From Escherichia coli (GTDB lineage Bacteria; Pseudomonadota; Gammaproteobacteria; Enterobacterales; Enterobacteriaceae), in assembly GCF_044647545.1 (NCBI RefSeq), contig NZ_CP172818.1: 64,000 nucleotides of DNA; one strand, given 5' to 3'. Shown here piece by piece: positions 10,358-10,711 of this stretch. The notes below the pieces were generated by a model. That model was not told the origin of the DNA, ran no database searches, and saw only the letters and a program-made list of their open reading frames with translations. Each line of letters starts with the position of its first letter. Positions within the stretch are counted from its first letter, which is position 1. The position numbers and the translations under genes were made by a program.

Positions 10358-10711
10358 GTTATTTCTCCCGTTGCGTTGCGTTGCGTTGCATTGTTTGATT
10401 AATATGAGTGTTGTGTGTCGACACTCATTAAAATTAGTCGCAAATGAGTATTAGTCAAATTAAGCGTAACGAGAAAAAAGAGGGAAAATATATTTTGAGG
10501 AACATTCTGGATATATTAACAATAGCCTGAGGAATAAGTGACTTAGAGAAAATTATTGATTTTACTGGTGTTATGTTGCGGGATTAATTTGTTTGATTAT
10601 ATTACTGTTGGGCGGAAAAATGACGTAAGTTGACGTTCGACAGGGGTAAACGAAACGGTAGAAAGATAAATATTAAATGAATTTAGGATTTTTCCGGCTT
10701 CGTTAAAGAAA

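Follow-up and report, generated by a model that had tools for sequence, protein, structure and literature searches.

A variable pentanucleotide microsatellite in the 5′ leader of the Escherichia coli stress gene yciG

Introduction

Hypermutable short repeats are generally considered to be scarce in Escherichia coli. The region preceding the stress gene yciG raises the question of whether this view holds for every locus, as a perfect pentanucleotide array directly adjoins the Shine–Dalgarno (SD) sequence of this gene and a palindrome lies near its promoter. The original prediction took the array to be a candidate slippage hotspot that could alter the length of the leader, and the palindrome to be a possible operator or RNA hairpin. 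Here, it is asked whether the number of repeat units varies between strains, whether that variation falls inside the transcribed leader, and whether either element is likely to influence expression. No prior description of the yciG repeat locus was found in the literature searched.

The yciG locus and its parts

All positions refer to the 64-kb stretch of E. coli DNA that was analyzed, called here the window. Its gene order around the locus is ompW-yciE-yciF-yciG-trpA-trpB, and both the array and the palindrome lie within the 390 nt that separate yciG from trpA. The parts of the locus are as follows:

10178–10357, minus strand: yciG coding sequence, 59 aa; con-10/KGG-repeat general stress protein (RefSeq annotation of matching genomes)
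10357, minus strand: yciG start codon, ATG
10364–10369, minus strand: SD sequence GGGAGA, 6 nt before the ATG; its first G is common with the last repeat unit
10369–10393, minus strand: pentanucleotide array, at +30 to +54 of the inferred mRNA; its perfect (CAACG)x4 part is at +35 to +54
10358–10422, minus strand: inferred 5′ untranslated leader of yciG, 65 nt, C/A-rich and predicted to be unstructured
10422, minus strand: putative transcription start, the G of GTCGAC, transferred from position 1314114 of K-12 NC_000913.2 (2 reads)
10431–10436, minus strand: putative −10 hexamer TAATTT in the sequence 5′ of the start site; the C before it (cTAATTT) is a sigma-S-type feature
10453–10458, minus strand: putative −35 hexamer TTGACT, 16 nt 5′ of the −10 hexamer
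10404–10428: 8-bp perfect inverted repeat ATGAGTGT-N9-ACACTCAT, with arms at 10404–10411 and 10421–10428 (−6 to +19 relative to the start site)
10415–10424: 10-bp perfect palindrome GTGTCGACAC, the core of the former (−2 to +8 relative to the start site)

An array beyond chance

On the plus strand, (GTTGC)x4 occupies positions 10370–10389 with 0 mismatches, while 100 shuffles gave 0 matches. The four GCAAC copies that had been predicted to adjoin the SD of yciG are thus confirmed, and a repeat of this kind is far beyond chance. It is also the sole pentanucleotide tandem with at least three perfect copies in the 64-kb window. Tandem Repeats Finder delimits the array to 10369–10393 with a period of 5 and 5.0 copies, the fifth being counted because a degenerate unit, CATTG, follows the perfect four; read in this other register, the plus strand carries CGTTGx4 and then CATTG. 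On the sense strand of yciG, the arrangement is CAAUG-(CAACG)x4-GGAGAAAUAAC-AUG. In effect, the array runs straight into the SD.

Position of the array relative to the transcription start

A single yciG start has been mapped in K-12 by Kim et al. 2012 (PMC3415461, Table S1), at position 1314114 of NC_000913.2 on the minus strand. It is supported by 2 reads, implies a 55-nt leader, and is preceded by sequence that ends in ...TTGACTAATTCTCATTAGCGACTAATTTTAATGAGTG. This start was carried over to window position 10422 by means of the MG1655 annotation and alignment, the read data being those of K-12, a 2-unit strain. The transferred start lies 8 nt 3′ of TAATTT (10431–10436).

A consensus promoter scan of positions 10300–10800 found no promoter, and the promoter was placed from the published start site together with cross-genus conservation. 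Among 79 yciG-family loci from other Enterobacteriaceae, 36 carry the pattern TTGACn-N15-18-CTAnnnT, ending 63–80 nt before the ATG. Despite the low read count, the promoter assignment is supported by this conservation. Other sources add little: yciG is not mentioned by Maciag et al. 2011, and the Reg-Seq preprint, in which a motif scan alone put yciGFE forward as a possible target of an unknown osmotic activator, is uninformative on the array and the palindrome.

The array is therefore placed 3′ of the transcription start and 5′ of the start codon, as judged from the 2-read K-12 site transferred by alignment. A start downstream of the repeat would have spoken against any effect on the leader, but the published K-12 data put it upstream; consequently, changes in copy number alter the length of the leader, which ranges from 55 to 85 nt. 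The predicted change of leader length through slippage stands on this basis.

Copy number across E. coli genomes

Copy number was surveyed in 5,426 complete E. coli genomes, 4,724 of which match the region, 4,584 at full length. Counts were obtained from queries in which different numbers of units had been placed in the flanks of the window. About 97% of the 4,584 full-locus genomes have an allele of 2-unit length, and about 3% have an expanded array. Among the latter, four perfect units are by far the most frequent (101 genomes); three units were found in no fewer than 9 genomes, 6 of which represent a separate ETEC haplotype, five in 10, six in 13, seven in 2, and eight in 3. A 10-unit query gave no exact match, the best matches listed being two-piece joins of 4-copy genomes. 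The range of 2 to 8 units is thus the one observed, and alleles of 9 or 11 copies may exist. Rather than being invariant, the repeat has between 2 and 8 units among complete genomes.

The remaining genomes, sampled evenly among the matches, all span 131 nt, which is the 2-unit length; K-12, O157:H7, and every ordinary match so sampled are 10 nt shorter than the window. According to the alignment, K-12 has 2 perfect units and CATTG, and other lineages have interrupted versions of equal length. The 2-unit allele also occurs in GF131, SMS-3-5, and LF82, whose immediate flanks are nearly identical, and two units are for this reason taken as the ancestral state. In one group of lineages, to which the window strain and one named ST648 belong, the array has grown to 3–8 units.

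Change by whole units on identical flanks

To relate repeat change to the divergence of the surrounding DNA, a common flank of 9.6 kb was taken for 21 genomes and the window, and copy number was read directly in these 22 sequences. Six genomes with 0 differences in the 9,601 bp flank have 5, 6, 6, 6, 7, and 8 units, and four other genomes, again with identical flanks, have 3, 3, 3, and 5 units. The flank of the window is identical to that of FDAARGOS_497, with 4 units in both. In all, the 18 window-like sequences contain 11 segregating sites and 9 haplotypes, with 6 repeat alleles. The genomes for this comparison were picked by allele, which inflates any ratio of repeat changes to substitutions; the occurrence of four alleles on one identical background is independent of that bias.

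The array thus combines perfect head-to-tail units beyond chance with whole-unit polymorphism on unchanged flanks, the sequence hallmarks of a microsatellite. It is a hypermutable microsatellite that changes by single-unit steps, and does so faster than 9.6 kb of flanking DNA gains one substitution. Sets of alleles on identical flanks read as the signature of slipped-strand mispairing, with instability apparently setting in above 2 units, and the array would most likely mutate by such mispairing during replication. The slippage hotspot that had been proposed from one genome is thereby supported by differences between genomes whose 9.6-kb flanks are the same.

Could these differences be sequencing or assembly artefacts? 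Miscalling of short tandem repeats can happen, above all in unpolished long-read assemblies. Nevertheless, the arrays are just 15–40 nt long, so that single reads span them easily, and in the 22 sequences the differences are always of whole units with perfect flanks. Moreover, alleles recur in independent isolates and laboratories: 3 copies were found in Egypt, the UK, and Germany, and 6 copies in 13 genomes. Because alleles recur across countries and laboratories, and always differ by whole units, assembly error is hardly credible as the source of the variation.

Expanded arrays of 4 and 5 units, again on identical flanks, are also present in MRY15-117 and WP2-W18, which represent a second flank haplotype that differs by 159 substitutions and has an intact yciE. 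The presence of expanded alleles on this second haplotype implies either that a short segment recombined or that the expansion is older.

Origin of the repeat unit

In other genera, the yciG leader ends in ...AACAACGAAAC(A/T)GGAGAAATAAC-ATG and contains one CAACG; the GGAGAAATAAC-ATG part is conserved in yciG-family loci. Two or more tandem CAACG units occur in 0 of the 79 yciG-family loci from other Enterobacteriaceae. A lone CAACG just 5′ of the ribosome-binding site is ancestral in the leaders of this family. The arrangement found at the species level in E. coli is CAATG-CAACG-CAACG, that is, 2 perfect units. Given the single CAACG elsewhere, this arrangement is a species-level duplication of a conserved translation-initiation segment. 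The duplicated segment later expanded to 3–8 perfect units in one lineage group.

Consequences for expression

Each added unit moves the SD another 5 nt away from the transcription start, leaving promoter spacing and reading frame unchanged. Here, comparison with the phase-variable contingency loci of Neisseria and Haemophilus is instructive. The yciG array is like them in being a hypermutable repeat tied to one gene. However, the repeats of those loci stand in coding regions or in the spacer between the −35 and −10 hexamers, whereas the array lies at +30 to +54, between the start site and the ATG. As it alters neither the reading frame nor the promoter spacing, no on/off switch is expected.

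Folding of leaders with 1 to 8 copies gave nearly constant probabilities of being unpaired, namely, 0.46–0.55 for the SD and 0.45–0.48 for the AUG. With a minimum free energy of −1.8 kcal/mol, the 65-nt leader is less structured than its shuffles. Because the added sequence is unstructured and the predicted accessibility of the ribosome site is constant, the variation is probably neutral or does no more than modify yciGFE expression quantitatively, neutrality here being a purely thermodynamic prediction.

Alternatively, the number of CAACG units might tune the output of yciGFE after transcription, through a longer C/A-rich standby site or enhancer for the ribosome, through additional pairing registers for a G/U-rich small RNA (the R1 region of GcvB), or through the loading of Rho. 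Slippage would then generate heritable and reversible quantitative variation in a sigma-S stress operon. Such tuning is considered unlikely, although several features are compatible with it. The array adjoins the SD, and the leader is unusually unstructured, C-rich, and G-poor. The R1 seed of GcvB is known to act on many mRNAs (PMC9299463), and GcvB targets C/A-rich elements (Sharma et al. 2007, as cited in PMC9299463). The predicted duplex between the leader and nt 62–92 of GcvB is the best among the 56 5′ regions of the window, a small and local background in which composition drives the signal, and it becomes stronger with added units, from −27 kcal/mol for 2 copies to between −30 and −32 kcal/mol for 4 or more.

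By contrast, the energies of duplexes between full-length GcvB and the leader are no better than those of composition-matched shuffles; since shuffles of equal composition pair as well, the pairing signal is compositional. In this respect yciG differs from the known GcvB targets, which it resembles in having an unstructured C/A-rich sequence by the SD and good predicted pairing with R1, the description of those elements being that of Sharma et al. 2007 as cited in PMC9299463. In the main texts searched, yciG was nowhere reported as a GcvB target, and the one co-mention came from an unrelated Klebsiella small-RNA study. Predicted accessibility of the ribosome site is, as noted, constant across copy numbers. 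Furthermore, alleles of 3 to 8 units all coexist, with no favored number apparent beyond the frequency of 4. The view that the array acts as a heritable, reversible rheostat of sigma-S-dependent yciGFE, by way of translation or GcvB-type small-RNA repression, is accordingly held to be quite unlikely. If it were true, this would be an uncommon instance of a core E. coli gene whose expression is tuned by repeats, with the mechanism operating in ST648-related lineages.

The palindrome at the start site

The palindrome had been described with the right sequence, ATGAGTGT and ACACTCAT with 9 nt between the arms, but had been placed at about 10424–10448, which is off by 20 bases; its true position, to the left of this, is 10404–10428. 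Consequently, it does not lie about 35 bp from the repeat, as had been thought, but 15 bp beyond it.

When the 390-nt intergenic region was resampled under a Markov model, a perfect 8-bp inverted repeat with a loop of 3–12 nt arose in 8.5% of resamples. The palindrome alone is therefore not statistically compelling, and its outer arms could be due to chance. It is invariant in five diverse E. coli, which is weak evidence for a segment of 25 bp where mean column identity is 93%, and it is retained in a deletion allele (strain P4, see below). The core has a wider distribution. In Salmonella arizonae and diarizonae and in Intestinirhabdus (loci L006, L007, L035, and L041), GTGTCGACAC begins 56–58 nt before the ATG, as it does in E. 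coli; the neighboring bases differ there, and the outer arms are found in E. coli only.

Since the dyad straddles the transcription start (−6 to +19), it is a DNA-level feature or a coincidence, and would not form a hairpin of the mapped mRNA. A DNA-level role of the core at the start site is possible on the sequence evidence. For instance, a dimeric regulator might bind GTGTCGACAC, or the whole of ATGAGTGT-N9-ACACTCAT, and modulate or block sigma-S-dependent initiation. The symmetry is centered at +7 and overlaps the start site, the 10-bp core keeps its distance from the ATG in the taxa just named, and the invariance among E. coli and the retention in the deletion allele point in the same direction. 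In addition, the GT-N2-AC core resembles generic operators of the GntR family, to which McbR (YncC) belongs, and McbR has been reported to bind the yciG promoter (PMC7705038). Nevertheless, the arms are specific to E. coli, the chance rate in resamples is appreciable, and conservation of so short a segment within the species says little. The footprint of YncC, moreover, is reportedly located upstream of the −35 hexamer, away from the start site. An operator at this position is thus a tentative proposal that we regard as doubtful. YncC and H-NS at the yciG promoter were reportedly the subject of Beraud et al. 2010, and the structure of McbR that of Lord et al. 2014. As judged by eye, the half-sites match those of CRP and LexA poorly, and the palindrome was not taken as a site of either kind.

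The palindrome had also been proposed to be an RNA hairpin. As such, it might stabilize the yciG mRNA by a 5′-terminal stem-loop, or do the same in read-through RNA from trpA. With both arms transcribed, the predicted energy is −8.9 kcal/mol (z = −3.6), and many yciG-family leaders of other genera have an inverted repeat in the early transcribed region. However, the start at 10422 is the seventh base of the upstream arm (10428–10421), so that transcription begins inside the promoter-proximal arm, and the first 43 nt of an RNA starting at 10422 fold with a minimum free energy of 0 kcal/mol. Furthermore, the arms show neither conservation nor covariation in Salmonella and Intestinirhabdus. The hairpin of the original prediction does not hold for the mapped leader, and a stabilizing stem-loop is very improbable. 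A search of Rfam at a permissive threshold returned two sub-threshold, chance-level matches, neither of them on the leader.

The reading preferred for the locus as a whole joins these elements: a microsatellite in the 5′ leader that changes by slipped-strand mispairing, probably neutral or a weak modifier, together with a palindrome that is a DNA-level feature or a coincidence. We consider this joint explanation likely.

Several other symmetrical elements were seen in the region. The half-site ATGAGT/ACTCAT occurs three times in 10404–10449, as ATGAGT at 10404–10409, ACTCATT at 10423–10429, and AATGAGT at 10443–10449. The last two form a second inverted repeat of 7 bp that brackets the −10 hexamer, and K-12 has a 7-bp version of it shifted by one base. 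Further upstream, at 10485–10496 (−63 to −74 from the start), the 12 bp of AAAATATATTTT form a perfect palindrome, which does not vary among the five E. coli aligned. The McbR sites determined by ChIP-seq in K-12 include an ATATAT motif (2026 mBio paper, PMC13343897), and AAAATATATTTT, which lies 5′ of the −35 hexamer, is for this reason a candidate binding site of McbR/YncC.

Homologues and paralogues of yciG in Kosakonia, Phytobacter, Klebsiella, Enterobacter, Citrobacter, and Salmonella in many cases have an inverted repeat of another sequence early in the transcribed region. Examples are GACGACAT..ATGTCGT, GATACG..CGTATC, ATGATATG..CATATCAT, and TGAACATG..CATGTTCA; all these repeats are 3′ of the same TTGACT / CTAAnTTTA promoter. 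Their sequences suggest a family-wide 5′ stem-loop of yciG that would be absent from the E. coli yciG transcript.

Relation to known repeat loci and significance

The yciG array has its closest counterparts among bacterial simple sequence repeats and variable-number tandem repeats, such as those used for MLVA typing of E. coli. Like them, it consists of perfect head-to-tail short units with whole-unit polymorphism between near-identical strains, and its instability rises with the number of units, 2 copies being stable across the species and 3 or more variable. Unlike them, it has a unit of 5 nt, which is unusual for E. coli, and is part of the leader of a core stress operon under sigma-S.

The closest functional analogues would be repeats in 5′ leaders. 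In Moraxella catarrhalis, an AGAT repeat in the 5′ leader of uspA2 modulates expression. There too, the short tandem units fall within the transcribed leader, ahead of the start codon, and strains differ in how many they have. The effect on expression has been demonstrated for uspA2, whereas the yciG array is known by its sequence, is shorter (2–8 units), and does not precede a gene for a surface antigen.

With at least 6 alleles within a lineage group of clinical importance, ST648-type strains among its members, the yciG locus is a clear exception to the scarcity of hypermutable repeats in E. coli. In practice, it offers a cheap, high-resolution typing marker for lineages with expanded arrays. 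Its naturally occurring alleles, whose leaders grow from 55 to 85 nt by 5 nt at a time, would also suit tests of how the length of a leader and C/A-rich sequence by the ribosome-binding site act on translation, small-RNA control, and Rho loading of a stress operon. If copy number should prove to have no effect, the locus would be a clean bacterial example of a microsatellite instability threshold, stable at 2 units and unstable at 3 or more.

Neighboring loci and other observations

In the window, yciE is split (9041–9465, minus strand) into ORFs of 95 aa and 46 aa. RefSeq annotates yciE as "frameshifted; internal stop" in every examined genome with window-like flanks, including FDAARGOS_497, while the gene is intact in K-12 and in the second expanded haplotype. 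A strict link between array expansion and the yciE pseudogene was rejected, as the second flank haplotype has an intact yciE and yet carries 4 and 5 copies.

A deletion allele was found in strain P4. It corresponds approximately to window positions 10075–10395 and removes yciG, the ribosome-binding site, the whole array, and the first codons of yciF, joining ...GCAGGTGAATA to GTTTCATTAAT directly before the palindrome. About 140 genomes match the query partly, as strain P4 does (4,724 matched versus 4,584 at full length). In about 700 of the 5,426 complete genomes, the yciG leader/promoter segment has no match, even by sensitive blastn.

Just after trpA, the hairpin of the trp operon terminator, GCCGCCAG..CTGGCGGC, is followed by a run of T (window 10720–10740, minus strand), and a sub-threshold sroD-like Rfam match overlaps it. 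The sense strand of the intergenic region (10460–10700) is rich in C and poor in G, with a C/G ratio of up to 5 near 10565–10595. This stretch fits the classical Rho-dependent terminator trp t′, about 250 bp beyond trp t.

Finally, several genomes with window-like flanks, including the strain named ST648, have a prophage with tail fibre genes and a Lom-family gene inserted in ompW. These genomes keep just the last 126 nt of ompW, which is intact in the window (8343–8981).
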